Shown here: positions 8,059 through 27,637 of the stretch, one piece after another
Layout of the letters: each line of letters starts with the position of its first letter
Numbering within the stretch: position 1 is the stretch's first letter
Assembly: GCA_964585235.1 (NCBI GenBank)
Contig: CAZPDD010000001.1
Coordinates: forward strand, 1 to 30,084
Origin: Candidatus Micrarchaeota archaeon
GTDB lineage: Archaea; Micrarchaeota; Micrarchaeia; Norongarragalinales; UBA97
Length of the DNA stretch: 30,084 nt
Direction: 5' to 3'
Translations under genes and position numbers: made by a program
Notes under the pieces: generated by a model
What the model was told of the DNA's origin: nothing
Database searches by the model: none
What the model saw: only the letters and a program-made list of their open reading frames with translations

Positions 8059-8141
8059 TTGCTTCACCACCCGCCATAAAGGTATACCATAGTGCAAGTC
8101 GAGAAAAAAGGCTTTGCGTTGGCATAAGCTTAATAAGATAT

Positions 8142-8155
8142 TCTTACTAGTAAGA
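8142..8155. promoter_or_regulatory. Perfect 14-bp palindrome TCTTACTAGTAAGA, likely operator of the AbrB-PIN operon
   Basis: Self-complementary and located between an AT-rich TATA-like box (CTTAATAA) and the antitoxin start. TA autoregulation is established knowledge. Confidence 0.6.
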
Positions 8156-8167
8156 TGGGTGATTTAA

Positions 8168-8443
8168 TTGGAGGCGCAGATTACGACAATGTCGACCAAG
8201 GGACAGGTAGTCATTCCGGAGGAAGTGCGCGAGGACTTGGACCTGCACGAAGGCGCCAAGTTCGCGGTCTACAGCCGCAAAGAGGCAGATACCATTCTCC
8301 TAAAGCGCCTCGACCTGCCAAAGCCCGCAGAGGCATTCCGCCAAATGGCTGAATGGACCAGAAAGCACGTGAAGGAAAAGGGCCTTGACGCAACTCCGGA
8401 AAAGATTGTGGAGTTGCAGCACAAACACAGGAAACACAAGTGA
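8168..8443 (+). CDS. AbrB/MazE/SpoVT-family antitoxin
   Basis: TTMSTKGQVVIPEEVREDLDLHEG is the canonical AbrB N-terminus. TTG start follows GGTGAT. Confidence 0.9.
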   Translation: MEAQITTMSTKGQVVIPEEVREDLDLHEGAKFAVYSRKEADTILLKRLDLPKPAEAFRQMAEWTRKHVKEKGLDATPEKIVELQHKHRKHK

Positions 8444-8450
8444 AAACTGT

Positions 8451-8876
8451 ATGCGGATCGCCTTCGACACCAACGTCCTTGTCTCAGCCCTAGCCTCCAA
8501 GGACGCGAAACGAAGCTCCTACCGGCTGGTCGAACTGGCATCCGAAGGCAAGGTCACCGGATACACGTCAATAGCATTGATGGAAGAATTCAAGGAAATA
8601 ATGCCGCGCGACTTCCAAACACCGCCTGAACGCGTCGAGCAAATGGTGGACGTTTTGCTAAGTTTCCTCAAGCTCGTCGAGCCGACCGCAGCAATCCATG
8701 CGGTAAAAGACGATCCCGATGATGACCGCATCTTGGAATGCGCAGTGGCAGCCAATGCGCTTTACGTCGCCTCGTGGGACCCGCACCTCACAAACCTCGC
8801 AGAATACGAAGGAATCAAGATAATGAATCCCGGCAAGCTTCTTCACGAACTAAAGGAAGCGCACGGAATTGAGTGA
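8451..8876 (+). CDS. PIN-domain (VapC-like) toxin
   Basis: MRIAFDTNVLVSAL...DDPDDDRILECAV...VASWDPHL. It starts 7 nt after the antitoxin stop. Confidence 0.9.
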   Translation: MRIAFDTNVLVSALASKDAKRSSYRLVELASEGKVTGYTSIALMEEFKEIMPRDFQTPPERVEQMVDVLLSFLKLVEPTAAIHAVKDDPDDDRILECAVAANALYVASWDPHLTNLAEYEGIKIMNPGKLLHELKEAHGIE

Positions 8877-9042
8877 CAACGTTACAGTTTCCCAGCATTT
8901 AATTCAAGCCTCTTCAACCGCTTTTCTTTGGTCGAATTGTTTTTTATAAGTGAGGTTGCGGTTTCTCAGTCGACAAATCAAGCCTTGCAAACCCCTCGCT
9001 CGGATTTCGAAAGCCTTTTATTTGCCCCCCCCAAGTTAGTGC

Positions 9043-9705
9043 GTGAAACGCGAGACTAAAAGCGTTATAAGCAAAGTAATAACCGCGGGTTTATTGGGCG
9101 CTAATCTATTCGCTGTGGGAAGGTATACTGGACTGAAAAGAGGACTTAATCTGGCTGAGAGAGCCACCAAAACGGCAGAACAGGCCTCAGCCGCCGCTAA
9201 AATGTATTTCAATGAAAGTGAATTGATTGCGGCAGCCCATCGCGTTTACACCGCTGCTGGAGGAGTTGAACGAGCTAACTTTCCGGCTTATCCGGAACTT
9301 CAACAAAGGCACGGGGCACAAAGAATACAACTGCCCAGCATTAACTCTTTCGACCTATTTACCCATTTTTACCTTTCTACGAAAGCAAATGAAAAACCGA
9401 CTAAATTAGCCCCCATTCAGCTGCTGGTTACGCCGAAAACAAGTACTGAAAATCGCTTCAGCCACAAAGATTATTCGACAAGAGTACAACGCCGCTTGGA
9501 CCAATTGGCTGAGACGCTCAGAAAAGGAGGCACCCCTGTTTCGGGCTTGGATTATCACCTCAGGAAAATCCGTAATCAAGACTTTGGATTGCACGCTCAC
9601 CCGCTCCTTTCAAAACATGCGACTGACATCTCTACCAGGGCAAACGCCCAGGGATTCAGAATTTTAGAAATCTCGCCTCGCGCGACTCCCGCGCGGAGAA
9701 AGTGA
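9043..9705 (+). CDS. Hypothetical protein (orphan, lower GC)
   Basis: 220-aa ORF with GTG start and a CCTTTTATT box about 20 nt upstream. Possible N-terminal hydrophobic segment. Confidence 0.6.
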   Translation: MKRETKSVISKVITAGLLGANLFAVGRYTGLKRGLNLAERATKTAEQASAAAKMYFNESELIAAAHRVYTAAGGVERANFPAYPELQQRHGAQRIQLPSINSFDLFTHFYLSTKANEKPTKLAPIQLLVTPKTSTENRFSHKDYSTRVQRRLDQLAETLRKGGTPVSGLDYHLRKIRNQDFGLHAHPLLSKHATDISTRANAQGFRILEISPRATPARRK

Positions 9706-9849
9706 ATAACGACACTTGCTTGAAATTCACCACGCTCAGCAGCATGCATTCGACACAAAATAGTTACCGGCTCGCGCTATTTTCCATCACTTCCTCGCGT
9801 TGACGAACCACGCCGAAAAGGCACCCACTCTTGTGAATCGAACACCCTT

Positions 9850-12687: not shown

Positions 12688-12698
12688 TTTTTCACCAA

Positions 12699-14639
12699 CT
12701 ATTTTTCAAGCACCAGGCGGCTGCGGCGAAGAGTCTCGCGGAGCTCGATTGCGCGCTCGAAGTCAAGCGCCTCCGCCGCAGCGCGCATTTGCGACTCTAG
12801 CTCTACTATCTGCGAGTGCGAAAACTTCTTGGCAAGCGCCTTGCCTGCGATTGGCTCGTCCTCCTCTCTTAGGGCAGAGACTTTCTTGACGATGCTTGCG
12901 GGAGTGATGCCGTGCTTTTCGTTGTAGACTTTTTGGTAAGCTCGGCGGCGGTTGGTCTCAGAAATCGCGCGCGCCATCGAGGCGGTCTCGCGCTCGGCGT
13001 AGAGGATGGCGCGGCTTTGCGCATTGCGCGCGGCGCGGCCGATTGTCTGGATGAGCGAAGTTTCGTTGCGTAAGAAGCCTTCCTTGTCGGCGTCGAGAAC
13101 TGCAACTAGGCCGACTTCAGGCAAGTCAAGGCCCTCGCGCAAGAGGTTTATTCCGACCAAGACGTCGAATTCGCCAAGGCGCAGGCGGCGGATGATGTCA
13201 GAGCGTTCAAGAGTCTCTATTTCCGAGTGGAGATAGCGGGCTTTCACGCCGTTTTTCAGCAGGTATTCCGTCAAGTCCTCGGCCTGCCTCTTGGTGAGGG
13301 TGGTGACGAGAGTGCGGAACTTGCTTTTTGTAGTTGCGGCGATTTGCAAACGCAAGTCCTCCACGCTTCCCTGCGTGGGCTTGACGATTACTTCAGGGTC
13401 GATGATGCCGGTGGGGCGCACTAGCTGCTCGACAACTGCCTTGGAGATTTGGCGTTCGTAGTCGCCGGGAGTGGCGGAGACGAAAATCGCGGGCCGCCGG
13501 CCAAGGTAACCCTCGAACTCCGCGTACTTGAGGGGCCGGTTGTCAAACGCGCTTGGCAGGCGGAAGCCGTAGTCAACGAGGTTTTTCTTGCGCGAAAAAT
13601 CGCCGTTGTACATTCCGTGGAGTTGGGGGATGGTGACGTGGCTCTCGTCAACAACTATTAGAGAGTCGTTTGAAAAGAAGTCCATCAGGCAATAGGGCTT
13701 TTCGCCGGGCTTGCGGCCGTCGAAATACCGAGAGTAGTTCTCAACGCCCTTGCAAAACCCGGTGTTTTCAATCATTTCCGCGTCGTAATTCACCCGCGTC
13801 TTGAGCCTGTGGGCGGCAAACTCGTCTTTCAGTTCCGGCAGGCGGGAAGCGAGTTCCTGCCGGATGCTTTTCACAACTCCCTTCACTCTCTCCTGCGGGA
13901 CGACGAAGTGCTTTGCCGGGAAAATGCGCGTGGAAGGAAGCTTGCCAAGCGGCTTGGTGGTGTCAAGCGAGAAGACTGTGATGGAAGAGAGCTTGTCGTC
14001 CTCGAGAATTAGGCGGTAGAATATTTTCTTGTAGGAAGGGTAGACGTCAATCGTATCCCCCCGGGAGCGGAAATCGCCAGGGCCGGGGGCCGCGTCGTTG
14101 CGCTCGTACTGGATGGAAGTGAGGAAGGCAAGCAAGTCGCTTCTCCTCCAGCCGTCCCCAACTTTCAGCTTGAGGGCCATTTCCTCGTAGTCGCGGGGGC
14201 TGCCGAGGCCGTAGATGCAGGAAACGCTTGCGACAACTATTGTCGGCTCGCCTGAAAGAAGAGAGGCAGTTGCGGAAAAGCGCATTTGCTCGATTTTCTC
14301 GTTCACCATCGCAGTTTTTTCAATGTACGTGTCGGTAGTGGGCATGTAACTCTCAGGCTGGTAGTAGTCGTAGTAGGAGACGAAGTACTCGACGTTGTTG
14401 TGGGGGAAGAATTCCTTGAACTCGGAATAGAGCTGGGTTGCAAGAGTCTTGTTGTGGCTGATGATTAGGGCATTTTTTCCAGTCTTTGCAATCACTTGGG
14501 CAACACTGTAGGTTTTGCCGGAACCCGTAACGCCGAGGAGAGTCTGCTTTCCTCCGGCTAAAACGCCTTTGGATAACTTGTCGATTGCCTGCGGCTGGTC
14601 GCCAGTTGGGCTGAAGGCTGAGTTTAGCGAAAACGGCAT
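12699..14639 (-). CDS. uvrB: Excinuclease ABC subunit B
   Basis: GVTGSGKT, beta-hairpin FVSYYDYYQPE, DESH, GINLLREGLD, QTIGRAARN and C-terminal UVR. It ends 11 nt before the uvrA start. Confidence 0.99.
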   Translation of the reverse strand: MPFSLNSAFSPTGDQPQAIDKLSKGVLAGGKQTLLGVTGSGKTYSVAQVIAKTGKNALIISHNKTLATQLYSEFKEFFPHNNVEYFVSYYDYYQPESYMPTTDTYIEKTAMVNEKIEQMRFSATASLLSGEPTIVVASVSCIYGLGSPRDYEEMALKLKVGDGWRRSDLLAFLTSIQYERNDAAPGPGDFRSRGDTIDVYPSYKKIFYRLILEDDKLSSITVFSLDTTKPLGKLPSTRIFPAKHFVVPQERVKGVVKSIRQELASRLPELKDEFAAHRLKTRVNYDAEMIENTGFCKGVENYSRYFDGRKPGEKPYCLMDFFSNDSLIVVDESHVTIPQLHGMYNGDFSRKKNLVDYGFRLPSAFDNRPLKYAEFEGYLGRRPAIFVSATPGDYERQISKAVVEQLVRPTGIIDPEVIVKPTQGSVEDLRLQIAATTKSKFRTLVTTLTKRQAEDLTEYLLKNGVKARYLHSEIETLERSDIIRRLRLGEFDVLVGINLLREGLDLPEVGLVAVLDADKEGFLRNETSLIQTIGRAARNAQSRAILYAERETASMARAISETNRRRAYQKVYNEKHGITPASIVKKVSALREEDEPIAGKALAKKFSHSQIVELESQMRAAAEALDFERAIELRETLRRSRLVLEK

Positions 14640-14782
14640 TTAAGAAGACCCGTATTAGTAGGCGGGAGAAAAGATAACAAGGCTATGCCCTGGCAGGCGG
14701 CTAGGGGGGAAAGCGGAAAAAAAGACGCTCTCCCGGCTTTGCATAGGCTGAAATACGTTTCATTCCCCTTAGCCTAAACAGA

Positions 14783-14810
14783 GGCCGCGGGCATTCACTT
14801 GCTCGCGGCC
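14783..14810. other. GC-rich hairpin in the divergent uvrB/lhr intergenic region
   Basis: GGCCGCGGGCA-TTCACT-TGCTCGCGGCC forms an 11-bp stem with one G-U pair. An adjacent ACTAC-N5-GTAGT lies at 14814-14828. Confidence 0.4.
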
Positions 14811-14848
14811 AAAACTACGTTATGTAGTGCCTAAAAGTGAAAGGGTAA

Positions 14849-17686
14849 ATGGAAAACGCGTTTGACTTGCTTCACCCCAAAATTGCCGCGCTAGCGAAAG
14901 CCCGTTTTGCAACGCCCACTGAAATCCAGGAAAAGGCAATTCCGCTTGTGCTTGCAGGCGAGGACGTGCTCGCCATTGCGCCAACCGGATGGGGAAAGAT
15001 GGAAGCCGCCTTCCTGCCTGCAATGAGCGGGCTTCTTGAAAACGTCGAGGCGGGAAACCGCGGGGGAATACAGTTTTTGTACATCACGCCTTTGCGCGCG
15101 CTCAACCGCGACATGCTCGAGCGCATGCAGTACTGGGCGCACCTCCTTGGCCTTTCCATCGCAGTCCGCCACGGGGACACTAAGCAAAGCGAGAGGCTAA
15201 AACAACGCGAAAACCCCCCGCAAGTGCTTGTAACGACGCCAGAGAGCGTCAACACGCTGCTTATTTCGCCGAAAATAAGGGATGCGTTGAGAAACGTCAA
15301 GTTCGTGGTTGTTGACGAGGTTCACGAGTTGATTGACAGCAAAAGGGGCGTCCAACTGGGCCTTGCGCTCGAGAGATTGCGCGAGAGAGTGCGGGAAAGA
15401 GAAAAAAACGGGGAAAACAACTTCCAGACAATCGGATTAAGCGCAACGGTTGGCGATGAGGCAAAGGCAGCGCAATTCATTTCGCCAAAGGCGCGGACGG
15501 TGCGCGTTGACTTGCAGAGGAAAATACGCCTGGAAGTCGATTACCCGAGCAAGCCGGCGAAGGAATTGGCGCAAACGTGGAAGCTTGACGCCGCAACCGC
15601 AGCGCGCATCGAAAAACTCGCCTCGCTCATTGAGGAAAGCAAGAGCGTGCTTGTTTTTGTCAACACACGCAGCATGGCCGAGGCTCTCTCGGCGCTTTTA
15701 TTCCAAGTCGAGGAACTGAGAGGGAAGGTGGGGGTTCACCACGGGTCGCTCTCGCGCGAGACGCGGATTGCAACCGAACAGGAGTTCAAGCGAAAGGCAA
15801 CCGAAGGCGAGGAAAAAAAGCTGAAGGCGATAGTATGCACAAGCAGCCTCGAGCTTGGAATAGACGTGGGGGAAATCAACCTCGTGGTACAGTACCACTC
15901 GCCGCGCCAAGTCACGCGCCTGTTGCAGCGGGTTGGTAGAAGCGGGCACCGCAAGAACCTCGTGCCGCGGGGGGTCGTGCTCGCAGTTGCGGGAATGGAT
16001 TGCGTCGAGGCGGCAGTTCTTGCAAAGCGGGCCATTGAACCCAAACTAGAGCGCACGCGCCTGCCGAAAAACAGCCTCGACGCACTTGGCCACCAAATTG
16101 CCGGAATAACGCTTGACAAGTGCGTTGGGGAAAACGACAAGCTGAGCACAGAGTATGTTTATGGCGTGTTCAAGCGCGCTTCGCATTATGAAACGCTCTC
16201 GATGCAGGACTTCCTGCTCGTCTGCAGGCAGCTGTCGGGGCAGAGACTGCTTGCCCTGAGCAACGACTTTGCTTTTGTCGCGCCTTCGCGGGCAACCAAA
16301 CTCTACTATTACGAAAACCTGAGCACCATCCCCGACTTGCGGCGGTATTTCGTCAAGGACGCTGGCAGCCGCAGGAACGTCGCAACTCTCGACGAGGATT
16401 TCGTCGCCGAGTACCTGCAAGTCGGCCAGGTGTTCATCACGCGCGGCATTCCCTGGAAGGTGTTGAGCGTGGCGGACGACGAAGTTGTCGTAGAACCCGG
16501 ACAGGATTACGAAGCGGCTGTTCCGGACTGGGTGGGCGAGGAAATTCCCGTAGACTATGAAGTGACGCAAGAAGTTGCGGAGTTGTTGAACAAAACCGGC
16601 CGCGGCAACTTGGGCAAGTGGGAGCTCGGCCGCGACTATGCCTGCTCGCAGCAAGCAGCAGCAGAGATAATTGCCTTTGCAGGGGAACAGGAGAAAAGCT
16701 TCCTCCCTTCACGCCAGAAGCTTTTCGTCGAGGAAAGCGGCAAGACTCTCGCGCTGCACTCCTTTGCCGGCAACGAGGCAAACGAGGCGATCGCCCGCTG
16801 CCTCGCCTTCCTGTTGAGCGCGCAACTGGGGGAAAGCGTGCGGACTCGCGCAAGCGCCTACAGCATTGCCTTCGAGTTTTCCCGCGAGTACGGCGCCAAG
16901 AAGTTCGAGAAACTCGTGCGCGAGCTTGACGGGGCAGGGCTTGAGAAAGTCCTGCTAAGCGCGCTGCCGTCAACACAGCTTTTCCGCAATAAATTCGTCG
17001 ACGTTGCAAAGCGCCTTGGCTTCATCAGGCGTGATGCGGACCTCAAACGCATCGGCATCCGGAGGCTCGTGGAGGAAAGCGCAGGCACGCCCGTGTGGAA
17101 GGAGGCGATGAACGAAGTCTTGAATGACAAGATGGATGTGGAGCGCGCCAAGCAAGTGGTCGCATGGCCGGTTGAAGTGGTGAGCAGGCCGGAACTCTCG
17201 GCAATTTCCCGCGAATTCCTCGAGTTCCACGGCTTTCGCGAATTGCTTTCGCCTCCCGAACCCACCAAGCAGGTGCTTGAGGCGTTCCAAAACAACTTGC
17301 TTGGCCAGCGCACGCGCTTGGCGTGCAACTACTGCAAAAACACGTTCAGCGTCTTTTTGCGCGAGGCGCCGGAGCAGGTAAAGTGCCCGCACTGCTCAAG
17401 CACGCAGGCGACGCTTGAAGAGTACAAGAAAGTCATGGACAAGGCCGGAAAGGGCGAGGAACTCAAAGCCGACGAGCGCAAGAAACTGGCGGAGGCCCGG
17501 CGGGTCGAGTCGCTAATTGCGTCTTACGGAAAAAAGGCGCTCGTGGCGCTTGCGACTTACGGAGTTGGGCCGGAAAACGCCGTGCGGGTCCTCTCACGCC
17601 TGCGCGACTCGGAAGAGGAGTTTTACCGCGACTTGCTTGAGACGCAAAAGCAGTTCATCGCAACCCGCAAGTTCTGGCGGGCTTAG
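14849..17686 (+). CDS. lhr: Archaeal Lhr-family SF2 helicase with C-terminal Zn finger
   Basis: Q motif (PTEIQ), YITPLRALNRD, VRHGDT, DEVH, LSAT, HHGSLS, TSSLELGID, QRVGRSGH, and C-terminal CNYC...CPHC. Confidence 0.93.
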   Translation: MENAFDLLHPKIAALAKARFATPTEIQEKAIPLVLAGEDVLAIAPTGWGKMEAAFLPAMSGLLENVEAGNRGGIQFLYITPLRALNRDMLERMQYWAHLLGLSIAVRHGDTKQSERLKQRENPPQVLVTTPESVNTLLISPKIRDALRNVKFVVVDEVHELIDSKRGVQLGLALERLRERVREREKNGENNFQTIGLSATVGDEAKAAQFISPKARTVRVDLQRKIRLEVDYPSKPAKELAQTWKLDAATAARIEKLASLIEESKSVLVFVNTRSMAEALSALLFQVEELRGKVGVHHGSLSRETRIATEQEFKRKATEGEEKKLKAIVCTSSLELGIDVGEINLVVQYHSPRQVTRLLQRVGRSGHRKNLVPRGVVLAVAGMDCVEAAVLAKRAIEPKLERTRLPKNSLDALGHQIAGITLDKCVGENDKLSTEYVYGVFKRASHYETLSMQDFLLVCRQLSGQRLLALSNDFAFVAPSRATKLYYYENLSTIPDLRRYFVKDAGSRRNVATLDEDFVAEYLQVGQVFITRGIPWKVLSVADDEVVVEPGQDYEAAVPDWVGEEIPVDYEVTQEVAELLNKTGRGNLGKWELGRDYACSQQAAAEIIAFAGEQEKSFLPSRQKLFVEESGKTLALHSFAGNEANEAIARCLAFLLSAQLGESVRTRASAYSIAFEFSREYGAKKFEKLVRELDGAGLEKVLLSALPSTQLFRNKFVDVAKRLGFIRRDADLKRIGIRRLVEESAGTPVWKEAMNEVLNDKMDVERAKQVVAWPVEVVSRPELSAISREFLEFHGFRELLSPPEPTKQVLEAFQNNLLGQRTRLACNYCKNTFSVFLREAPEQVKCPHCSSTQATLEEYKKVMDKAGKGEELKADERKKLAEARRVESLIASYGKKALVALATYGVGPENAVRVLSRLRDSEEEFYRDLLETQKQFIATRKFWRA

Positions 17687-17692
17687 GGAAAA

Positions 17693-18151
17693 CTAGGGCT
17701 GTCCCGCGTGCCTAACTTTGCTTACCTTGCCGCCGGGCAGTTCTTTGAAATACCTGCCTATGAGGTCGTTAAGAACGCCTTGAGTGAAGTTGCTCCCGTT
17801 ATGGGGCCAGATGAATTCGCTTTTGTCATGGGACGCCTTGCCTGCCTTTACTACGTATCTTCCATTCCAAACCAAGGCCGTTTTTGCGTTTGCATCGCCC
17901 GGCTTGTTTTCCGGCCGCAGACCCATTTGGTCAATTACTTGGAGGGTATTGATTCTCGACATGCTTTTTCCATCCTTGAATTGGGAAGCCATATGCGCCG
18001 GGAGGTGGTTTATGCTATCTGCAAAATGAAGCTCGAAATGATGGGCCTTACGGCGGTTGTTCTTGGAGCCAACTTCAGGCAAATGGTAGGCGTAAAGACC
18101 CATGTAACGGATTGGAGGCCGGGGCGCGGTTGGCGCTGCAAGTTTTCCCAT
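17693..18151 (-). CDS. Hypothetical protein
   Basis: 152 aa. A TTTAAAC box 22 nt upstream of ATG18151 supports this strand over the overlapping + ORF. Confidence 0.6.
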   Translation of the reverse strand: MGKLAAPTAPRPPIRYMGLYAYHLPEVGSKNNRRKAHHFELHFADSINHLPAHMASQFKDGKSMSRINTLQVIDQMGLRPENKPGDANAKTALVWNGRYVVKAGKASHDKSEFIWPHNGSNFTQGVLNDLIGRYFKELPGGKVSKVRHAGQP

Positions 18152-18204: not shown

Positions 18205-18360
18205 CTAAACCCTGAGGAACGCGCGGATTTTCTGGAAAAACGATTTTTCTCCAGTCGTTTTCGCCGGGCTTGCCTCCAAGAATTCGTATTCTTTCTCGCT
18301 TGGCGGCTCGCGTTCCTCAAGCGTTAGTTCCCTGACGCCAAGCACGCGCGGTTTTTCCAT
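18205..18360 (-). CDS. 51-aa protein directly downstream of E2 (absent from the ORF track)
   Basis: Hand translation gives MEKPRVLGVRELTLEEREPPSEKEYEFLEASPAKTTGEKSFFQKIRAFLRV*. The ATG is 4 nt after the E2 stop, and both termini resemble the 277-aa protein. Confidence 0.75.
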   Translation of the reverse strand: MEKPRVLGVRELTLEEREPPSEKEYEFLEASPAKTTGEKSFFQKIRAFLRV

Positions 18361-18364
18361 TTTT

Positions 18365-18850
18365 TCACAACACTATAGTCGGTTTTTCAAGCCTGCGGGC
18401 CAGCGGCTGTCCGGCAGACGGCGCGAGGCCTTGCTTTTCCAAGAAATATTTCGCCGCCTCCTTGTTAAGCGGGTCCTTCGGGTTGGGGTTTTCAAGCAAT
18501 TGCTTGAGGCCGGCGGCGAGGGAAACGAGCGACAGGCCTTCGCTCCACGCGTTGAGCAATTGGATGCACACGCGGCCGTCCTGTGGTCGGATGTTGGGGT
18601 GGAAAATTGGCGAAAGCCAAGTGACTTCCAGGCCCCCCGGGTAGGGATAGTCGCGAAGCAGGCGGATGCGCACGCGGTGGGAATTTACTGGCACCTCGCG
18701 GCCGCCTTGCAGCACGATTCCCCTTGCGGAAAGCTCTAGGACGTATTCAGTCTTGTCGGCACCGGCCTTGAAGACCGCGCCGCTTGCGGACAATTCGGCA
18801 AACTCGTTATCCAGGCGGCGGCGCCAGATGGCTTCGGGAAGGCGGGGCAT
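18365..18850 (-). CDS. Ubiquitin-conjugating enzyme E2 (UBC fold)
   Basis: RRLDNEF helix 1, DYPY, and PIFHPNIRPQDGRVC (HPN at 84-86, catalytic Cys95), followed by W and LLENPNPKDPLNKEAA, matching eukaryotic E2 signatures. Confidence 0.95.
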   Translation of the reverse strand: MPRLPEAIWRRRLDNEFAELSASGAVFKAGADKTEYVLELSARGIVLQGGREVPVNSHRVRIRLLRDYPYPGGLEVTWLSPIFHPNIRPQDGRVCIQLLNAWSEGLSLVSLAAGLKQLLENPNPKDPLNKEAAKYFLEKQGLAPSAGQPLARRLEKPTIVL

Positions 18851-18865
18851 GAGGAAAGGATAGGG

Positions 18866-18885
18866 GGCACAAAGAGATTTAATTG
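18866..18885 (-). promoter_or_regulatory. E2 promoter motif CAATTAAATCTCTTTGTGCC
   Basis: The TATA-like box is 25 nt before the E2 ATG. The motif is 17/20 identical to 20739-20758 upstream of the Ubl gene. Confidence 0.6.
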
Positions 18886-18908
18886 GGCACGGGGAATATG
18901 ACTACGCC

Positions 18909-19937
18909 ATGAAAACCATTCAACCGCACAAAATTAGCCATGAAAGCATTCAAGCCGCCCGTCAAATGGCTGAAGCGCACTTGAGGAAACTCGATTACTC
19001 AGTCATCGCAAGCGACAATAGCCTATTCGCCGCCAAAGGCGTGCCTGAAAACGGTTCGAGCTGGCCCGAAATACGTAAAATGACCAACGAATTCATGGGA
19101 CCGCGCATAGACGTTTTGTTCGATGCTAAGGTCATAAGCGTAAAAAGCAACGGCTTTCCACACGACGAAGTGCACAAGCACGCGGGCGACTTGATAGACG
19201 TAATTCGCGGGGCAACAATCCCCCTTGACGCAATCAGATTGGAAAGTATAAAGAAAACCCCCGCGATGGAAAAAGCAGCGCAGAAGGCCGTGGGAAAGGC
19301 GCTTTCCGTAGTTGGATTCGACCCGGCGAAGCTCAGAAATCTCCCCCCACGTCAACGCAGGGAATTGCGTGCAGAATACCGCGCGCTCCACATGAATTAC
19401 TCTGCAGCCTATTCGAACGCCAAGCCCGATGACGTCGCCAAAGCAGCCGCAGTGGCCCTGATGGAAAAATACGGGTTTTTCAGCCACTTCAAGCACAGCC
19501 GGCATACCTTCGTCACGCAGTCGATCCTGCAGGGAACTATTCCAATTCACGCACTGGGAGTAGAGCCTGAAGAGCTCATGCTCGGCAACCACAAAGCCTT
19601 CGAGTCATTGCTTAACGGCACTGCCGACGCAGTTGACAAAGCCCGTTGGCAAATTGCAGTTCGGAATACGCTTGAAGAAAAAGGCGTTGATGTTGGAGAA
19701 TGGGAAACCGAGCATTTCCGGCTGCTCACTGAAAAAAACTTGGCTGAATTGGCAGCAAGAAAGAAATCTAACACTAAAGGAAAACTTTACCCACAGTTGC
19801 CGAAAAGGAAACCCATGAAAATAGAACGCGGCGTAGCATTGCTTGACGAACTTGCCGAACACAGGTTCAAATTGTGGCCCGGATTCCTAAAAGCAATTTC
19901 AGAATGTAAAAACCCCGCTTGGCTTTCGCCCGAATAA
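18909..19937 (+). CDS. Hypothetical protein (342 aa, helical)
   Basis: Long ORF divergent from E2; no motif recognised. Confidence 0.75.
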   Translation: MKTIQPHKISHESIQAARQMAEAHLRKLDYSVIASDNSLFAAKGVPENGSSWPEIRKMTNEFMGPRIDVLFDAKVISVKSNGFPHDEVHKHAGDLIDVIRGATIPLDAIRLESIKKTPAMEKAAQKAVGKALSVVGFDPAKLRNLPPRQRRELRAEYRALHMNYSAAYSNAKPDDVAKAAAVALMEKYGFFSHFKHSRHTFVTQSILQGTIPIHALGVEPEELMLGNHKAFESLLNGTADAVDKARWQIAVRNTLEEKGVDVGEWETEHFRLLTEKNLAELAARKKSNTKGKLYPQLPKRKPMKIERGVALLDELAEHRFKLWPGFLKAISECKNPAWLSPE

Positions 19938-20023
19938 TCCCCCTTCGAGCTGGCATGAAAATCGATTCTGTAGCGGCGCAAAGGCGCCTCGAGACGGCGG
20001 GTATTGATTGGAAGGAACTTGGG

Positions 20024-20482
20024 TCAGTCAAGTTTGTGCTTGTTGACTGCATCGTATAACAAACGCTTGAAATCCTCGTGCGCTTGCGAACGGCCGTTCG
20101 GATGCATCAGTCTCACCAAAGGAATTTTACGGTTCACTGCCAACCCTGTGACTTTTTCGAGAAAATCATTGTCGCCTACAATGCCCTTGGCAATTCTTTC
20201 CACCGTTTCAGGAGTAAAGCGCTTGCCTCCCGGATTATGGCCCGAGTTTACCAACGCAGCAATCGCCTTTTCAGCCGCCCCCGAACGCAAGACCGCAGCA
20301 ATTAATGGCCTAATCTCCTCGGGGGAAACCCTTCCGGTCAAATGCTTCAATCCTGCGCGGGGACTCCGCCATTCCCTTTCTTCACCCTTCCCCAATTCGC
20401 CGGAAACCGTACGGTAAGCTCTGGCGGCTTTAACATAAGAAAACGCCGGTTCAAGCGGATTTTTCACTAACTTTGCCTCCAA
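20024..20482 (-). CDS. Hypothetical protein co-transcribed with the ubiquitin-like gene
   Basis: The TTG start (20482) directly abuts the Ubl TAA stop (20483-20485). 152 aa. Confidence 0.65.
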   Translation of the reverse strand: MEAKLVKNPLEPAFSYVKAARAYRTVSGELGKGEEREWRSPRAGLKHLTGRVSPEEIRPLIAAVLRSGAAEKAIAALVNSGHNPGGKRFTPETVERIAKGIVGDNDFLEKVTGLAVNRKIPLVRLMHPNGRSQAHEDFKRLLYDAVNKHKLD

Positions 20483-20725
20483 TTAGCCGCCCGTCGGGTC
20501 GGGCATCAACAGGAGCTCGGCGCCTTCCGCAACCCCCGCCTCCTTCAGCGTCGCATCGGGGTTGAGAATCTTGTTGTCGGCAGTTGCCAGCACGAACCTG
20601 TCTTTCAGCTGAAGGTTCTCGCTCAGGACCTCAAGCACGCTGCCTACCGTGAACTTTTCCTCAACGGCAATGACGATTTCCTTGCCGCTGGTCGAGTGGG
20701 TTACTGTAATTTTGTATTCGACCAT
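20483..20725 (-). CDS. Ubiquitin-like modifier, 80 aa, C-terminal Gly-Gly
   Basis: MVEYKITVTH...DRFVLATADNKILNPDATLKEAGVAEGAELLLMPDPTGG* aligns in register with ubiquitin [43 protein letters not shown] lies 23 nt before ATG20725. Confidence 0.9.
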   Translation of the reverse strand: MVEYKITVTHSTSGKEIVIAVEEKFTVGSVLEVLSENLQLKDRFVLATADNKILNPDATLKEAGVAEGAELLLMPDPTGG

Positions 20726-20738
20726 TTCGCAAAACACC

Positions 20739-20780
20739 GGAACAAAGCTATTTAATTGCCGCAACGGCTTTAATAGCTTT
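20739..20780. promoter_or_regulatory. Symmetric divergent promoter between Ubl and the 277aa-JAMM-RING operon
   Basis: Inverted repeat AAAGCTATT (20744-20752) / AATAGCTTT (20772-20780), with an inner GCCG-CAA-CGGC and a TATA-like box on each strand. Confidence 0.55.
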
Positions 20781-20817
20781 CGCGAAGGAAAAGGGGCACT
20801 GGAAGGAATTGCAGCCC

Positions 20818-21651
20818 ATGGATAAGCCCAAGATAGTGGAAATAAAGCGGCCTCAAACGAGCGCGAGCCAAAAAGCGCCAGGCGCCGGCGCGCCCCAAGC
20901 CAGCGGGCCTGCGGAAGAGGAAAGCGAAGTGCCTGCGCAAAGTTCGCAACCCGTTGAGCAAACGCAACAGCCGCAAGCGCCCGAAGAGGCGGGGCAAACC
21001 CCTTCCCGTGAACAGCCTGAAACTTCAATCGCACGCGGCGTGCAACAGCCTTCCGAAGAGCTCAGCGAGCTTGAGAAAAGCGTGCTTGCCGAAATGCGCA
21101 AGCGCGGCGAAATCAGCGCGGACGAGGAGCGGCTCATTATTGCAGAAATCCGCGAGGAAGAGAAAAAACAGGCGGAAGAAGGAAGCAGGCAAACATTGCT
21201 GCAGGCGGAAAAGAAAGAACCCAGTGAGGATGAAAAACGAGTGACTGGCGGGGTTGAAGTGGCAAACGAACAGCCGGGCCCTCGCGTTGTCGAGGAACGC
21301 GATTATTCGCTAGTCATCAACGCCACTCAAACATCCCCGCCGCAAGTCAAGAACCTCATCAAACAAGAGCGGATGGGCACCGTGGTTGTGAGCGAACAAA
21401 GCACGCTTGAAAAGGAAGCGCGGGAGCAGGCAAGCCGCGACGCGATGGCAATCAGGACCGGGCCGGGCACGCCTTTGACCATTGACGAGAGGCAGCACGC
21501 CGCAAGCTTGGCTGAAAAAATCTGGCGCCAGAAGCAGGCGGAAAAAAGCTGGTTTTACCGACTAAAGAAAATGCTGGGGCTTGCAGGAAGGGACGAGACA
21601 GCAACGGAAACAGGCGGATTCGGAAGAAGCGGACAAGGCGGGTTCACTTGA
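20818..21651 (+). CDS. 277-aa largely disordered (Q/E/P/S-rich) protein, first gene of the JAMM-RING operon
   Basis: Starts MDKPKIVEI, has a short helical segment (LAEMRKRGEISADEE) and an amphipathic EKSWFYRLKKMLGL. Its stop overlaps the JAMM start (TTGA). Confidence 0.8.
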   Translation: MDKPKIVEIKRPQTSASQKAPGAGAPQASGPAEEESEVPAQSSQPVEQTQQPQAPEEAGQTPSREQPETSIARGVQQPSEELSELEKSVLAEMRKRGEISADEERLIIAEIREEEKKQAEEGSRQTLLQAEKKEPSEDEKRVTGGVEVANEQPGPRVVEERDYSLVINATQTSPPQVKNLIKQERMGTVVVSEQSTLEKEAREQASRDAMAIRTGPGTPLTIDERQHAASLAEKIWRQKQAEKSWFYRLKKMLGLAGRDETATETGGFGRSGQGGFT

Positions 21652-22112
21652 CTTACGAGGCATACCTAGAACAAAACGCGCTGCTTGCCGCGCAGGAACA
21701 CTTCGCCAAGGCCGCGGCAAGGGGCCTTGAGTCAATGGGCTTGCTTGCAGGCAGCGCCGCAAAGTGGCGTGGCCAAACGTATGCGATTGCCGACGAATTC
21801 ATCACCGCCGGCAATTCCGCAACCAGCGTGAGCGTCAAGTTCGAGCAAGAGTCCTTCCCACAGCTTGCTGCCAAGGTGAACGAGGCGAGGAAAAAAGGAA
21901 AAGTGATTGTTTCCTGGTGCCATTCGCACCCCAACTACGGCTGCTTTCTTTCCTCAACCGACGTCGCCACGCAGCGAAAGTACTTCGGGGAGGAATTCAA
22001 CTTCGCGCTGGTCATCGACCCCGTGAGGAACGAGAAACAGGCATTCAAGCTCAGTGAAGAAAATGAAAGCGGATACAGGACCGCAAGCTACGCAATCATC
22101 AGAAGAAAGTGA
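21648..22112 (+). CDS. JAMM/MPN+ metalloprotease, Rpn11/CSN5-like deubiquitylase
   Basis: E28 (ESMGLL), then WCHSHPNYGCFLSSTD (H92, H94, S102, D105) and LVIDP. Compare eukaryotic WYHSHPGFGCWLSGVD. Confidence 0.93.
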   Translation: MTYEAYLEQNALLAAQEHFAKAAARGLESMGLLAGSAAKWRGQTYAIADEFITAGNSATSVSVKFEQESFPQLAAKVNEARKKGKVIVSWCHSHPNYGCFLSSTDVATQRKYFGEEFNFALVIDPVRNEKQAFKLSEENESGYRTASYAIIRRK

Positions 22113-22122
22113 GGGCCAAGAA

Positions 22123-23268
22123 ATGCCGAAAGAACAACCCGAAGGCCAGCCGGCACAAACGGGAGTAATGCCGCAAGGAACTGGCGAAGCTAGCCAAGCC
22201 AATGAGACAGAGCGGACGCAACAACCGCCCCGGCAAGTTCAAATCCAGGGATTGACCCCGCGCAAGCGCGGCCGGCCGAGGAAAAACGCGCAGGCAAACC
22301 AGATGCCAGCCCAGCCTGCGGCAAGCGAACAGGCGGCAAAAGCAACCACTACGGCAATTCGCATTTCAACCCCGGCGCAAGGCCGGCTGCTCCAGCCAAT
22401 CATACGCGCTGCGCCGTCAAGAACGCCAATGCCCGAGGCAATTGCCCCTCCGGAAAAAAACCTTGCGGCAACAGGCGCAATCAAGCAATTTCAGGCTGCA
22501 AAAACAACTCCTGCAAAGCCGAGGAAAAAATCCGGAAAGCTCTCGCGGTTCGACAAAGACGCGGTCAAGCTAATACAGCACGGAACGCAAAGCGTGCAGC
22601 GCATTTCCTCAATCCTCGGGGTCGACGCGGGCGAGGCGCAAAAGCGCTTCCTCGAAATGGAGAAGCGGGGGCTCTTGGCCTTCGACGTGCAAGCCCCTGA
22701 CCGCATCACGCTCACCATCCGGGGGTACAACGACCTGAAACTCTCCCCCCGCATGGAAAGCCAGGTGGAAAAAACAATTGCAAAGAATGCGGAAGAAAAG
22801 CAAGTGCAGCTGGAAAAACTTCCCCCGCGAAACGAAATCGAGGTTTTGGGGGAAAAGCCAGTTGAACCCCCTCACGAGAAAATCGACTTGGCCGAGCTTT
22901 TGCGCCGCGGCGCGCCCAAAGACGCCGGCGTTTTCGTAAAGCGCGCTGAACGGCGCCAGGGCGCGGAGGAGAAAGTCGTAATCGAACGCAAGAGCATAGA
23001 CGCCCAGACTACGGAACTGCTGAAAAAAACCATGCAGGCGTACGAGGGCGAGAAATGCGAGCTGTGCCGCGGGGACTTCCGCCTCGCGCTTTCCGACGGC
23101 CACCCCAAGTACGGACACTGCTTCTGCGGCGCCGCTTTCCACCACGATTGTTACGACACGCTTTCCGACGAAAACGGCTCGTGCCCCCGCTGCGGCCGCT
23201 CTCTTGAAATCATCCTCGATAGGCAAAGCCAGGAGGCCGTCAACGCGATAAAAAAACTCTTCGAGTGA
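22123..23268 (+). CDS. RING-like Zn-finger protein (E3 candidate) with central wHTH and disordered N-terminus
   Basis: C-terminal CELC...CFCGAAFHHDC...CPRC (C4HC3 ligand order) at 23056-23193. wHTH-like segment FDKDAVKLIQ...ISSILG...LEMEKRGLL...ITLTIRG at 22549-22740. Confidence 0.8.
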   Translation: MPKEQPEGQPAQTGVMPQGTGEASQANETERTQQPPRQVQIQGLTPRKRGRPRKNAQANQMPAQPAASEQAAKATTTAIRISTPAQGRLLQPIIRAAPSRTPMPEAIAPPEKNLAATGAIKQFQAAKTTPAKPRKKSGKLSRFDKDAVKLIQHGTQSVQRISSILGVDAGEAQKRFLEMEKRGLLAFDVQAPDRITLTIRGYNDLKLSPRMESQVEKTIAKNAEEKQVQLEKLPPRNEIEVLGEKPVEPPHEKIDLAELLRRGAPKDAGVFVKRAERRQGAEEKVVIERKSIDAQTTELLKKTMQAYEGEKCELCRGDFRLALSDGHPKYGHCFCGAAFHHDCYDTLSDENGSCPRCGRSLEIILDRQSQEAVNAIKKLFE

Positions 23269-23274
23269 ATTGCA

Positions 23275-23481
23275 ATGGCTCAAAAAAAGACGGAAGAGAA
23301 GCTAAGTACGCCGGACTTCCTTGTCGAACTCCAAAAACAGTTGGCCGAAAACCGCAGGTCAGATGCGCAACGCATTGAAGAAATGGTCCGAAGGAAAAAA
23401 GAAACTCAAGAAACTGCTGCAAGAGAAATTTCTGAAAAAATCAACCGTGCACGGGGCACGAAACGCGCTTGGAAACGCTGA
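23275..23481 (+). CDS. Small coiled-coil protein, last gene of the JAMM-RING operon
   Basis: 68 aa, K/E/R-rich helix, 6 nt after the RING stop. It overlaps the E1 3' end tail-to-tail by 41 nt. Confidence 0.6.
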   Translation: MAQKKTEEKLSTPDFLVELQKQLAENRRSDAQRIEEMVRRKKETQETAAREISEKINRARGTKRAWKR

Positions 23482-24310
23482 AGACGCTCGACTCGTTTTT
23501 CAATCCGTTGTAGAAAAAGTATTTGCCCACCAAGTCGCTTGCCGGCAGCGCGAAGCCGGTTTTTTCCTTGCGCCGGGAAATCGGCACCTGCGTCAAATGA
23601 TTTACTCCGCCACTTTCTGCTTCTTCCCTGCCCCCGGGCCCGTGAGGGCTTGTTGCGTGAGCTAACTTCACAAACTCGTTTGCCTGCACGCTTGCGATAA
23701 GGCTGGTGGTTGTTGGAAGGGCGGGCATTTTCGGGTCGATGAACTCAAGCTCGTCGCCAGTGCAGCTGTAGCGCTTCCAAAGGATGGCGTAGTCGCGCTT
23801 GCTGAGGCCGCACTCAAGACACGCGCTTGGCGAGCGCACCACCTGCGCCTTTCCGTTAAAGCCCGTTGTCCCGCCGTCAATGACAACCGCCTTGCCGTAG
23901 CACTGGGCGTTCACGTGAAGGCGCGAGCCGAGGTTGTCAAGGCACGTGAAGGCATAGTCGAACTGCTCGAAAAAACTTTCCTTCAACTGCTCAGCGCGCT
24001 TTACAACCGCCTTGACGGCCGCGTCGGGGTTGATGCGCGTTGACTCGCGGCTGATTGCACGCGCCTTTTTCTCGCGGTTAAGCGCGTCGGCGTGCGTGAA
24101 GAAAACGCAGCGGTTGAGGTTAGCCGGCACGACTTCGTCAAAATCAACCACCGTGAGCTTGCGCACGCCGAGCTGCAGCAAAAGCTTGCACACTTCGTTT
24201 CCCAAAGCGCCCGCCCCGACAACAAGGCAGTTCGCCTGCTCCACCGCCCCCTGGCGCCAGCCGGAAACGCGCTTTTGCCTGTCCCACTGGTCCGCGTCGA
24301 TCATGTCCAT
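23441..24310 (-). CDS. Ubiquitin-activating enzyme E1 (ThiF superfamily, eukaryote-like subtype)
   Basis: WDRQKR, VVGAGALGNEV, DFDEVVPANLNR, CLDNLGSR, DGGTTGFNG, Zn ligands CLEC and CPVH, and crossover-loop Cys183 in KRYSCTG. Start could be 24304 or 24337. Confidence 0.93.
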   Translation of the reverse strand: MDMIDADQWDRQKRVSGWRQGAVEQANCLVVGAGALGNEVCKLLLQLGVRKLTVVDFDEVVPANLNRCVFFTHADALNREKKARAISRESTRINPDAAVKAVVKRAEQLKESFFEQFDYAFTCLDNLGSRLHVNAQCYGKAVVIDGGTTGFNGKAQVVRSPSACLECGLSKRDYAILWKRYSCTGDELEFIDPKMPALPTTTSLIASVQANEFVKLAHATSPHGPGGREEAESGGVNHLTQVPISRRKEKTGFALPASDLVGKYFFYNGLKNESSVFSVSKRVSCPVHG

Positions 24311-24410
24311 TGCAAAAACCTTTTCAGCTAAGGGCATTAATCGCTTTCACTGCTTTTAATTCCCGACACCCGCCCCCATGCATTAAAAGCCCATTGCGCC
24401 GAATTAGATA

Positions 24411-25046
24411 ATGGAAATCGACGCAAGGCGAATCGTGGAAAAAAGCTTTAAGGAAGTTTCAAGGGGCGAAGCACGAGATTTCTTGACAACAAGGGGCGGC
24501 TTTATCGAGGCAAGTGAAAAGATTGTCGATGCAATCGCCATGGCGCACAAAAATTTCCTGGCCGAGTTCATCGCACGCTCTAAGCTTGATGAACGGAAGA
24601 AAAAGGAGTTAACCCGGACTTTCGACGACTATGCGGATGCGGTGCAAGTCAGCATCGCAATCCGTCGGATGATTCCCGTGAACATCAACGTGTTTCGCCA
24701 AATACACGACAAGTCGCTTGAACTCTTAAAGGACCCGCAAGTCCGCGCCGGTTTTGATAAACTGAATAAAATCCTGATGCCGAATATGTTCTTTGATGCC
24801 AACTCGGCTGAAAAAAACATCAGGACGGGCCTTAAAACAGGCTATCGGCAGGCATATTACGATTTTCACATCCGCGACCCGGCCACTTTCACCGAGGACG
24901 ATTTCCGCCTCTCGACGGTGAGAAAAGCATATTACCTGAAGTTCGCGGCGCTCTTGGACGAAGAAAAAGGCCGCGAATTGTCCGAAATGGCCCGGACTGC
25001 CTTTTTGGAGTGCGACAAGAAGATACGCACTTTGGGGGAGAATTGA
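24411..25046 (+). CDS. Hypothetical helical protein
   Basis: 211-aa ORF divergent from E1; no motif recognised. Confidence 0.7.
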   Translation: MEIDARRIVEKSFKEVSRGEARDFLTTRGGFIEASEKIVDAIAMAHKNFLAEFIARSKLDERKKKELTRTFDDYADAVQVSIAIRRMIPVNINVFRQIHDKSLELLKDPQVRAGFDKLNKILMPNMFFDANSAEKNIRTGLKTGYRQAYYDFHIRDPATFTEDDFRLSTVRKAYYLKFAALLDEEKGRELSEMARTAFLECDKKIRTLGEN

Positions 25047-25087: not shown

Positions 25088-25639
25088 GTGGCCTGGCTTG
25101 AAATCATAATCTTGTGCGTTGCAATCTTTTTCCTGCAAATAGGCATTCCGCAGCTGACGCCCTTGCTTTCCTTCGTGCCGGCGCACGCACTTTCCGCGCC
25201 GTGGACCATAGTCACGTCACTCTTCGTGCACGCGAACGTCGCACACTTGTTCTTCAACATGTGGGCGCTTTTCGTCTTCGGCCCCTTCCTCGAAAGGCGA
25301 ATAGGGCAGAAGAGATTTTACGCGCTATACCTTCTTGCAGGCATTGTCGGCAACATCGCCTTTGCACTGCTTTACCCGTCAGACGTAGCGGGGCTTGGGG
25401 CAAGCGGCGCGATTTTCGGCGTGATGGGCGCGATGGCAATGCTCATGCCCAACCTCGCGATACTCGTTTTCTTCATCCCCATGCCAATGTGGATTGCCGC
25501 GATTTTCTGGGCGGTTACGGAATTCCTGCTTGCAGGCTCGCCCGACGCAGTTGCGCACTTCACGCACCTCGCCGGCCTCGGAGTTGGCCTGTTGTGGGGC
25601 AAGTACATCAAGGACGGCGAGCCGCAGTACTTTGCCTAA
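25088..25639 (+). CDS. Rhomboid-family intramembrane serine protease
   Basis: TSLFVHANVAHLFFNM, LER, GASGAIFG (catalytic Ser) and AHFTHLAG (catalytic His), with multiple TM segments. Confidence 0.95.
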   Translation: MAWLEIIILCVAIFFLQIGIPQLTPLLSFVPAHALSAPWTIVTSLFVHANVAHLFFNMWALFVFGPFLERRIGQKRFYALYLLAGIVGNIAFALLYPSDVAGLGASGAIFGVMGAMAMLMPNLAILVFFIPMPMWIAAIFWAVTEFLLAGSPDAVAHFTHLAGLGVGLLWGKYIKDGEPQYFA

Positions 25640-26096: not shown

Positions 26097-27362
26097 CTAC
26101 ATCCACGCGCTCATGCGCTTTTGCGCAAGCACCCTGCTGCGGCTGACGTAAGACTGCACGGGCCGCTTGAGGCGCGTGCCAAGCAGCTCAAGCGCTTCGG
26201 AAAGCGAGGAGCACACGGCTGGCGGGCATCGCATTGCCTGGCGCACGTTCTCGCGCACCTGCCAAACCCCCGCAGGCACCTGGTAGCCCTCGCCAACTTC
26301 CCTGAACACTACAACGCGCGCCTGCCTGCCCATTGCAAAAAGCGCCTCGACAACCCCCAAGCGCGAGGCATAATAGCCGCCGCCCTCAAGCTCGGCATAG
26401 CTCGTGCGGCCCTCGAAGGGCTCGAATTCCGATAGGATGTCTGAAGAAGACTGCTCGGCCCACGGCGTCGATGGCGCCCAGCTCTCGAAGTTCTCAAACT
26501 CCCACATTCCCGGCATCAGCAAGACCGAAAAGTGGTTGAACATGAAGTCATTAGAGAAGACGAGGAAATTGCTGAGCTCTGGAAAATCACGCACTTGCGC
26601 CAGCAAGTGCTTGGCGATGATGTCGTCAGCTCCTGTGATGCTCCACTTCGTTGGAACGAGCTTTCTCTCGTGGCCGAGAATGCCCGCGCTCAAAAGCTTT
26701 TGAACGTAATAATAGTCAAGCCCGTGCGACAAGAGTTCGGGAACCGCGTCGCGCACGAGCAGCTTGTCCTCCACAACGTCGTCGACAACCCCGGGGATTT
26801 GCGGGTTGTCCGCGAGCGAGAATTTTTTCACCAAGCCGCTTGGCCCCATCGGCTGGCTCTGCGGAGAGAAGAACATCCCAAAGCGCGGCTTTTGCGAAAA
26901 CGAAACTTCGATGTCAACTGACTGGCGCGACATCACGGCGTCCTGCACGTCCTGCAAATAACGCGACTCTTCGGAAATGCCGTGCAGTTTTTTTCCGCGC
27001 ACCAAGTTAACACGCATTCGGATGACTTCATCATAAGACAAGCTGGTCCACTGGGCCGGCGAGTCAAGCAACTCGGCGCCGGTGTTTTCCGCAACGCTGA
27101 CAAGCGGGCCGACGAAAACATTCGGGTAGCCGTGCTCGCCAACGAACAAGTTCGGCGGTGAGGGGCCGAAAACTTCGGCGCCGATTTTTTTCTCAACATC
27201 AGGCATTGCTAGAAGCTTTGAAAGAACCGGAGAGTGCTCGCCGCCGGGGTATAGCTGGCCCTTGTAGCGCACGAAAACCTGCCCATTCGACTTGACAACC
27301 TCAAGGTCCCTGAAAACCGAGCGCTTGGGCAGGCCGAGCCTATTGTTTAAAACAGCCACCAT
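26097..27362 (-). CDS. nreA: Nre-family archaeal DNA repair protein
   Basis: GPSPPNLFVGEHGYPNVFVGPL, RKLVPTKWSITGADD, GRTSYA...GGYYASRL, GVWQVRENVR and a C-terminal PIP-like QKRMSAWM. Confidence 0.92.
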   Translation of the reverse strand: MVAVLNNRLGLPKRSVFRDLEVVKSNGQVFVRYKGQLYPGGEHSPVLSKLLAMPDVEKKIGAEVFGPSPPNLFVGEHGYPNVFVGPLVSVAENTGAELLDSPAQWTSLSYDEVIRMRVNLVRGKKLHGISEESRYLQDVQDAVMSRQSVDIEVSFSQKPRFGMFFSPQSQPMGPSGLVKKFSLADNPQIPGVVDDVVEDKLLVRDAVPELLSHGLDYYYVQKLLSAGILGHERKLVPTKWSITGADDIIAKHLLAQVRDFPELSNFLVFSNDFMFNHFSVLLMPGMWEFENFESWAPSTPWAEQSSSDILSEFEPFEGRTSYAELEGGGYYASRLGVVEALFAMGRQARVVVFREVGEGYQVPAGVWQVRENVRQAMRCPPAVCSSLSEALELLGTRLKRPVQSYVSRSRVLAQKRMSAWM

Positions 27363-27637
27363 GCGAGTAGGAATAACTTCCAGCGAATAAAAAGCAAACG
27401 GCAACACAGTGGCTTGCCGGATGTTTCCCCCATTTTGTAAAAAAACTGCCTATGCGCCAACTGGTTGGCAGGATTTGGCTAAAAAATTTGGAAAAGCCTG
27501 GCCGCGCCAAAAAAAATTTGTGCGAAAACCGTTTACTAATAGTGGAAGCGAGGGAATAGTTTTATTTAAATAGCGCTTTTCGCATATTTTAGACGGACTG
27601 AAAGACAATTTTTGGCTTCAAAAAACACCCCACCTTC

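Follow-up and report, generated by a model that had tools for sequence, protein, structure and literature searches.

Two accessory proteins with a shared motif in a ubiquitin-like gene cluster of the archaeal order Norongarragalinales

The window analysed here, a stretch of 30,084 nucleotides from contig CAZPDD010000001.1 of a Candidatus Micrarchaeota archaeon, carries a gene cluster encoding an E2 (PF00179), an 80-residue ubiquitin-like protein (Ubl) ending in GG, a JAMM deconjugase (PF01398), a RING-type protein with a weak Pfam match and a ThiF-type E1. Among these genes lie two open reading frames (ORFs), for proteins of 51 and 277 amino acids, which raise the question of what such accessory proteins could do in a ubiquitin-like system. 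A first-pass annotation of the sequence had placed both ORFs with correct ends (18205-18360, minus strand, and 20818-21651, plus strand), and had described the first as coupled to the E2 gene by a gap of 4 nucleotides behind its stop codon and the second as overlapping the JAMM gene by TTGA, as we also observed. Each of the two ORFs is a real gene, conserved and part of the Ubl cluster. Comparison of their sequences indicates that the two proteins have nothing in common beyond a short motif, KP[RK][IV][IV], and an amphipathic helix of basic charge, and do not form one family. The features on which the argument rests are the following.

18205..18360, minus strand: 51-residue accessory protein, made of a putative docking motif, a core related to a JAMM extension and an optional amphipathic helix
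18340..18354, minus strand: KPRVL motif of the 51-residue protein
18274..18318, minus strand: conserved core EER-x-PP ... EYxFxE, homologous to the extension at the N-terminus of Methanomassiliicoccales JAMMs
18208..18249, minus strand: basic amphipathic C-terminal helix of the 51-residue protein, a probable membrane anchor
20818..21651, plus strand: 277-residue accessory protein, with two motif copies, a variable low-complexity linker, an RD[IL]xP core, a helix and an amphipathic helix
20824..20838, plus strand: first motif copy of the 277-residue protein, KPKIV
21277..21291, plus strand: second motif copy, GPRVV
21424..21447, plus strand: conserved EQAsRD core, in which an Asp is invariant
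21541..21582, plus strand: basic amphipathic helix of the 277-residue protein, a probable membrane anchor
18368..18385, minus strand: motif in the tail of E2, here KPTIVL against a consensus of KPRIV

The gene of the 51-residue protein, hereafter the small gene, occurred as one copy in 62 of the 68 genomes of the order Norongarragalinales and in all 22 of high quality, and its distance to the E2 match was at most 200 nucleotides in 43 of 58 cases, and at most 2 kb in 10, while in 4 the gene lay elsewhere. A search of the whole library of 1.8 billion proteins yielded 71 relatives, 70 of them 30-90 residues long. Differences between small genes amounted to 0.51, 0.38 and 0.66 at the three codon positions, and the three invariant prolines of the family are written with all four codons, so that the ORF behaves like a coding gene. 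The gene of the 277-residue protein, hereafter the large gene, stood before the JAMM gene in about 40 of 48 loci, with products from 80 to about 440 residues, and a profile of its core gave matches in 33 of 35 Norongarragalinales genomes. Looking for both genes beside E1, E2 and JAMM in relatives, a check proposed in the first-pass annotation, thus recovered them. The close relatives are labelled Micrarchaeota, part of them Norongarragalinales, and in a sample of the phylum examined by alignment and Pfam the E2 was present in 35 of 35 Norongarragalinales genomes and absent from all 265 genomes of other orders; within this sample the cluster is restricted to the one order. This co-occurrence with E2 ties the accessory proteins to the ubiquitin-like system, as had been proposed, and an adaptor role fits their anatomy.

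Neither protein resembled a known family, the 51-residue one having no match in Pfam, NCBIfam, ESM Atlas or PDB and the 277-residue one none in Pfam, NCBIfam or ESM Atlas. The large-protein profile found nothing in six cluster loci of other lineages. Three weak matches to it in other Micrarchaeota orders (E values of 0.004-0.009) covered the helical end only and were not counted, and a match in genome G011 turned out to be the small gene.

The two proteins had been regarded as members of one family, laid out as a terminal motif, an acidic or disordered linker and an amphipathic helix. The motif and the helix were indeed common to both, whereas the linker was not, since in the small protein this segment carries an invariant Pro-Pro and is a conserved core. 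Small proteins consist of KP[RK][IV][IV]x[VI], EER-x-PP and an aromatic strand, in that order, prolines 4, 19 and 20 being invariant, and their C-terminal helix is optional (by a strict pattern, 11 of 38 loci and 34 of 70 library matches). Large proteins usually have two motifs, a low-complexity linker of free length, the RD[IL]xP core, a helix and the basic amphipathic helix, which in the 277-residue protein stops 22 residues short of the C-terminus. A BLASTP comparison of the two window proteins gave an E value of 0.18, and the profiles of the two families, whose conserved cores are distinct, aligned over a 13-column stretch of the helix only. The idea of a single family was therefore abandoned.

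As the first-pass annotation had noticed, the shared motif is real. It was found in 36 of 38 small proteins, against 0.46 expected from shuffled sequences, and in 57 copies distributed over 35 of 40 large proteins, against 0.74 expected. The C-terminal end of E2 carried it as well, in 54 of 58 loci compared with 0.74 in shuffles, with few exceptions 5-9 residues before the chain end, the motif counts being about 70 times the shuffled value. This copy on E2 had been overlooked in the first pass, together with those on some E1s, the homology of the small core to a JAMM extension and a transmembrane helix in Thermoproteota-like homologues, which are all described below. In the host genome, which is 74% complete, 9 of 4,211 ATG-started ORFs had a terminal motif, three of them encoding E2 and the 51- and 277-residue proteins. 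The motif was not found in Ubl, JAMM or E1 of Norongarragalinales loci and occurred once in 46 RINGs. Among further homologues it was present at the C-terminal end of 109 of 120 E2s and at the N-terminus of 100 of 120 JAMMs; a loose form of the pattern was seen at 22 of 120 E1 N-termini, and the E1 of some Ignisphaera and Bathyarchaeia begins with the motif. In an AlphaFold model the E2 tail was unpacked from the E2 body.

Given that the motif is found on E1, E2 and JAMM, its simplest ligand would be Ubl, which all three handle, and we consider it an even call that Ubl is what the motif binds. Ubl is highly conserved, with a mean column identity of 64%, and its best relatives of solved structure are ubiquitins, no SUMO being among the 60 listed. 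When aligned to ubiquitin, it has Ala20 (46 of 49 sequences) in the place of Glu16 and Val33 (48 of 49) in that of Lys29, two ubiquitin residues that we take to flank the beta2-alpha1 groove, and this region of Ubl is acidic, with acidic residues at positions 16, 22, 32 and 36. SUMO, ATG8, UFM1 and ATG12 take linear motifs in the beta2-alpha1 groove, which in SUMO is lined by lysines (PMC12687455). The flank of the motif described here, K/R-P-R/K, is basic, unlike the acidic one with which SUMO-binding motifs face the basic patch of SUMO, and a hydrophobic core of the form [VIL][VIL]x[VIL] was found in 52 of 63 small-protein copies, in under half of the large-protein copies and not in E2 tails. 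A predicted complex of Ubl with the 51-residue protein scored 0.24, against a mark of 0.32, and was counted neither for nor against binding.

One divergent genome, G009, departs from this pattern. Beside its Ubl gene lies a 55-residue candidate (L122:3266-3433) that contains only a motif, a DI core and a helix; its Ubl is divergent, with a short extension past GG, and its E2 is tailless. We had treated this genome as a case of joint loss, in which a tailless E2 accompanies the Ubl changes E22T and V33T, and dropped it because its Ubl departs from the others at 13 of the 35 conserved columns and a motif-plus-helix gene is present. In another lineage, a 96-residue gene before E1 (L123:4210-4500) encodes two PRIV motifs after a short helix pair and could be an analogue of the 277-residue protein; the helix pair resembles the end of a neighbouring membrane protein (L123:2752-4179).

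Other lineages point to what the small protein may do. One library match, P0064, adjoins E1 and Ubl in an arrangement unlike that of Norongarragalinales, and by way of its E1 we reached kindred clusters in Methanomassiliicoccales, Ignisphaera, Bathyarchaeia and Nitrososphaerota, in which four of the five E2s examined end in a variant of the motif. In Methanomassiliicoccales the gene directly behind E2 encodes a JAMM with an N-terminal extension of 45 residues, and in the two loci examined it overlaps E2 by 4 nucleotides, thus occupying the slot of the small gene. The small-family profile matched the first 24 residues of 105 of these JAMMs (probability 83%, E value 8.8e-6, 24 columns), and 74 of 118 JAMM N-termini scored above the 99th percentile of shuffles. 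On this profile evidence, the core of the 51-residue protein is homologous to the JAMM extension. An AlphaFold model of a natural fusion had residues 11-40 as short strands packed on the JAMM, with per-residue confidence (pLDDT) of 81-94, and the motif residues 1-10 at 52. From this model we read the module as two parts, a core that would pack on JAMM, and a motif left free to take a different ligand. The 51-residue protein is best read as a JAMM subunit that has become detached and that also serves as a membrane tether, and its binding to JAMM appears probable from the profile match and the model.

The two Methanomassiliicoccales loci (L159:9001-11252 and L161:9001-11272) consist of four genes, for E1, a Ubl with a short tail past GG, E2 and the extended JAMM, with no RING nearby. 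Thermoproteota-like clusters encode a conserved helical protein of about 355 residues that belongs to no family (L157:7539-8960, L123:1318-2692 and L158:6135-7199), followed downstream in L123 and L157 by a RING-type protein of about 105 residues. In Ignisphaera, a membrane protein encoded just before Ubl (L160:8088-8750) has a proline-rich tail with a motif-like RPIIR and is a candidate substrate or receptor; the E2 of that locus (9887-10531) received no Pfam call.

The terminal helices of both window proteins had a hydrophobic moment of 0.6-0.7 and a net charge of +3 to +4. A sliding hydrophobic-moment score separated the classes poorly, and a strict helix pattern was added, which recognised 15 of 40 large proteins and 34 of 70 library matches of the small protein, compared with 0.8 in shuffles. 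What the helix conserves is its pattern and basic charge, not its sequence. In four Thermoproteota-like homologues, two of which matched a hidden Markov model of the core (E values of 1e-8 and 3e-5) and two of which were recognised by eye only, the core is directly followed by a hydrophobic 19-mer with Kyte-Doolittle values of 2.2-2.7; two of these modules with a transmembrane-like helix lie directly behind JAMM and two directly behind E1. It is fairly likely that the helices of the accessory proteins are membrane anchors. MinD-type membrane-targeting sequences are short, basic, aromatic-rich amphipathic helices at or near the C-terminus, often ended by Gly. The helices of the window proteins resemble them in these features, with lipid binding as a prediction only, and differ in sitting on motif-bearing adaptors and in being optional in the small one.

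From the conservation, co-occurrence, shared motif, JAMM fusion and anchor swap we infer a Ubl conjugation system with a minimal E1, whose components would be linked by the KP[RK][IV][IV] strand and tethered to the membrane by both accessory proteins. The motif would act as a charge-reversed SUMO-interacting motif (SIM), its basic strand being added in the acidic beta2-alpha1 groove of Ubl. Placed in the tail of E2 and, in other lineages, at the N-terminus of E1, it would hold Ubl during activation and transfer. The 51-residue protein would be the detached N-terminal module of the JAMM deconjugase, binding JAMM in trans by its Pro-Pro/aromatic core, holding the Ubl of a tagged substrate by its motif and, where the helix is present, bringing JAMM to the membrane. 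The 277-residue protein would be a separate, order-specific membrane scaffold with two motifs and an RD[IL]xP site for a further partner, probably the JAMM or the RING encoded directly downstream; it is the least explained part, and its two motifs and predicted anchor are compatible with such a scaffold. Taken as a whole, this mechanism has in our judgement slightly less than an even chance of being right. More tentatively, Norongarragalinales, Methanomassiliicoccales and several Thermoproteota may share a linear motif dedicated to Ubl binding, which is carried by E1, E2, deconjugase and adaptors and would be the prokaryotic equivalent of the SIM, together with an Rpn11/CSN5-type deconjugase that is anchored to the membrane via a separable subunit.

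Several observations weigh against this proposal. The homology to the JAMM extension spans only about 24-30 residues, and in Norongarragalinales the small gene accompanies E2 and not JAMM. In the E2-tail motif, the hydrophobic residue that a SIM has in fourth place is missing, since the chain ends there. About half to two thirds of the small proteins have no helix, so that membrane tethering is not essential to them, and the strict pattern was met by just 15 of 40 large proteins, most of the others being basic and amphipathic by eye. No fusion or model indicates a partner for the 277-residue protein. Moreover, the motif could bind another shared partner, such as E1, the RING or a protein not encoded in the cluster.

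The last point leads to the main rival, which we regard as possible though unlikely, namely that the motif docks on an enzyme and not on Ubl. The likeliest enzyme would be E1, the E2 tail then recruiting E2 to a site on it and the accessory proteins acting as tethers or as competitors for this site, with RING or JAMM as alternatives. The E1 is without the domain by which E2 is recruited in systems of Clusters I and II (PMC5654768), the Thermoproteota motif immediately precedes a conserved N-terminal segment of E1, on which it could pack, and locus L157 has a tailless E2 while the start of its E1 is motif-like. However, L158 and L160 have motif-like strands on E1 and E2 alike, which would compete for a single E1 site, the motif is present in Methanomassiliicoccales loci without a RING beside the cluster, and in the fusion model it was not packed on JAMM. 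Less probable than enzyme docking is that the amphipathic helices dock proteins, for example RING or an AAA+ ATPase, in a soluble system. Short amphipathic helices are often protein-binding, that of the small protein is dispensable in many members, and the RING likewise ends in one, but the retention of pattern and basic charge over sequence, and the substitution of a transmembrane helix in other lineages, fit this poorly.

The first-pass annotation had also considered the two proteins as substrates specific to this system. That they are dedicated substrates, with the motif marking an acceptor lysine or a RING degron, seems to us a little more doubtful still. Most motif copies have a Lys before the proline, the E2 of Caldiarchaeum subterraneum is auto-ubiquitylated at a lysine of its C-terminal tail (PMC5654768), and both proteins are largely disordered. 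Nevertheless, 43 of 120 E2-tail matches, 13 of 63 small-protein copies and 12 of 64 large-protein copies lack a Lys next to the proline, before or after it, the small core belongs to the JAMM chain elsewhere, and the motif is found at loci without an adjacent RING. Finally, that the ORFs are spurious or the motifs due to chance is scarcely credible, because the lack of a Pfam, NCBIfam or PDB match for the 51-residue ORF is outweighed by its conservation in 62 of 68 genomes, 71 relatives, coding-type codon variation and the excess of motifs over shuffles.

The enzymes of the cluster to which the two proteins belong are the following.

18365..18850, minus strand: E2 of UBC fold (PF00179) with a flexible C-terminal tail
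20483..20725, minus strand: 80-residue Ubl with a mature GG end
21648..22112, plus strand: Rpn11-type JAMM, core domain only, without N-terminal extension (TTG start deduced from homologues)
22123..23268, plus strand: RING-type protein with a disordered N-terminus and, from sequence alone, a probable winged-helix domain
23441..24337, minus strand: ThiF-family E1 without a C-terminal ubiquitin-fold domain

The E1 terminates at a Zn-binding CPVH, with no C-terminal domain after the Zn site. Across the order the layout is fixed: Ubl, E2 and the small gene share a strand, the large gene, JAMM and RING are divergent from them, and E1 is convergent. Five ORFs inside or beside the cluster had no family match (17693-18151, minus; 18909-19937, plus; 20024-20482, minus; 23275-23481, plus; 24411-25046, plus), and their G+C content was 47-52%, compared with 55-61% for the core enzyme genes. 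Two of them lie between the Ubl and E2 genes, which in most relatives are direct neighbours, and the 68-residue ORF behind RING (23275-23481) showed no conservation at that position among relatives. Genes uvrC, uvrA and uvrB and an Lhr helicase adjoin the cluster (window positions 6490-17686), Lhr being also found downstream of the small gene in one unrelated contig; on the far side lie a rhomboid protease (25088-25639) and an Nre gene (26097-27407). In P0264, a chain of 385 residues joins Ubl and E1, either as a natural fusion or through a lost stop codon.

In gene content and E1 anatomy the locus resembles archaeal Cluster III (Hennell James et al. 2017, PMC5654768, Supplementary Note 4), in which Ubl, E1, E2 and JAB are clustered and E1 lacks the C-terminal ubiquitin-like domain; the text of that paper names no Micrarchaeota, and its description of Cluster III mentions neither accessory proteins nor a docking motif nor a link to the membrane. 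The C. subterraneum operon (PMC5654768, PMC6043591) likewise combines Ub, E1, E2, RING and an Rpn11-type JAMM, with a flexible E2 tail. That system belongs to Cluster I and has an E1 with a ubiquitin-fold domain, a Ub precursor and a partner-free CsRpn11, whereas in Norongarragalinales Ubl is born mature, E1 is minimal and a separate peptide appears to be the partner of JAMM. SIMs and the motifs read by UFM1 and ATG8 are, as here, short hydrophobic strands on enzyme tails or adaptors, often in several copies, and the SUMO E1 subunit SAE2 has a SIM at its C-terminus (PMC12687455). Unlike a SIM, the motif has a basic flank and an invariant proline, its modifier aligns with ubiquitin, and binding in the groove is a proposal.

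The fused-JAMM model aligned structurally with CSN5 back to model residues 8-10 (CSN5 32-36), whereas alignments with Rpn11, BRCC36 and CsRpn11 began at 41-47. Only about 10 extra residues align with CSN5, and the sequence profile matched it only from position 50-51; the model thus suggests that the extension core sits where CSN5 has its N-terminal extension, as the same domain region at most.

Neither ubiquitin nor the proteasome is discussed in a survey of Micrarchaeota from 2025. We found no account of this system, motif or accessory proteins in the open literature, most subscription journals being outside our coverage, in agreement with the first-pass statement that no such component is known from the described archaeal operons. 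What is new here are the undescribed accessory parts and the docking motif of an archaeal ubiquitin-like system, the kind of system being already known.

The enzymes of archaeal ubiquitin cascades are known, and of their readers, adaptors and sites of action almost none. A five-residue motif common to E1, E2, JAMM and two adaptors constitutes a docking code that can be put to the test, and may account for the way in which a cascade operates without the E1 domain that usually recruits E2. The host lineage is uncultured, and all parts are small and suited to reconstitution in Escherichia coli; Methanomassiliicoccales include cultured species. The split JAMM module hints at a route by which partner-bound deconjugases such as Rpn11 and CSN5 could have originated, and the interchangeable anchors, amphipathic or transmembrane, point to a system that would work at the membrane. 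If the proposal is true, archaea outside the Asgards would have a motif-based network of ubiquitin readers and a partner-bound JAMM.

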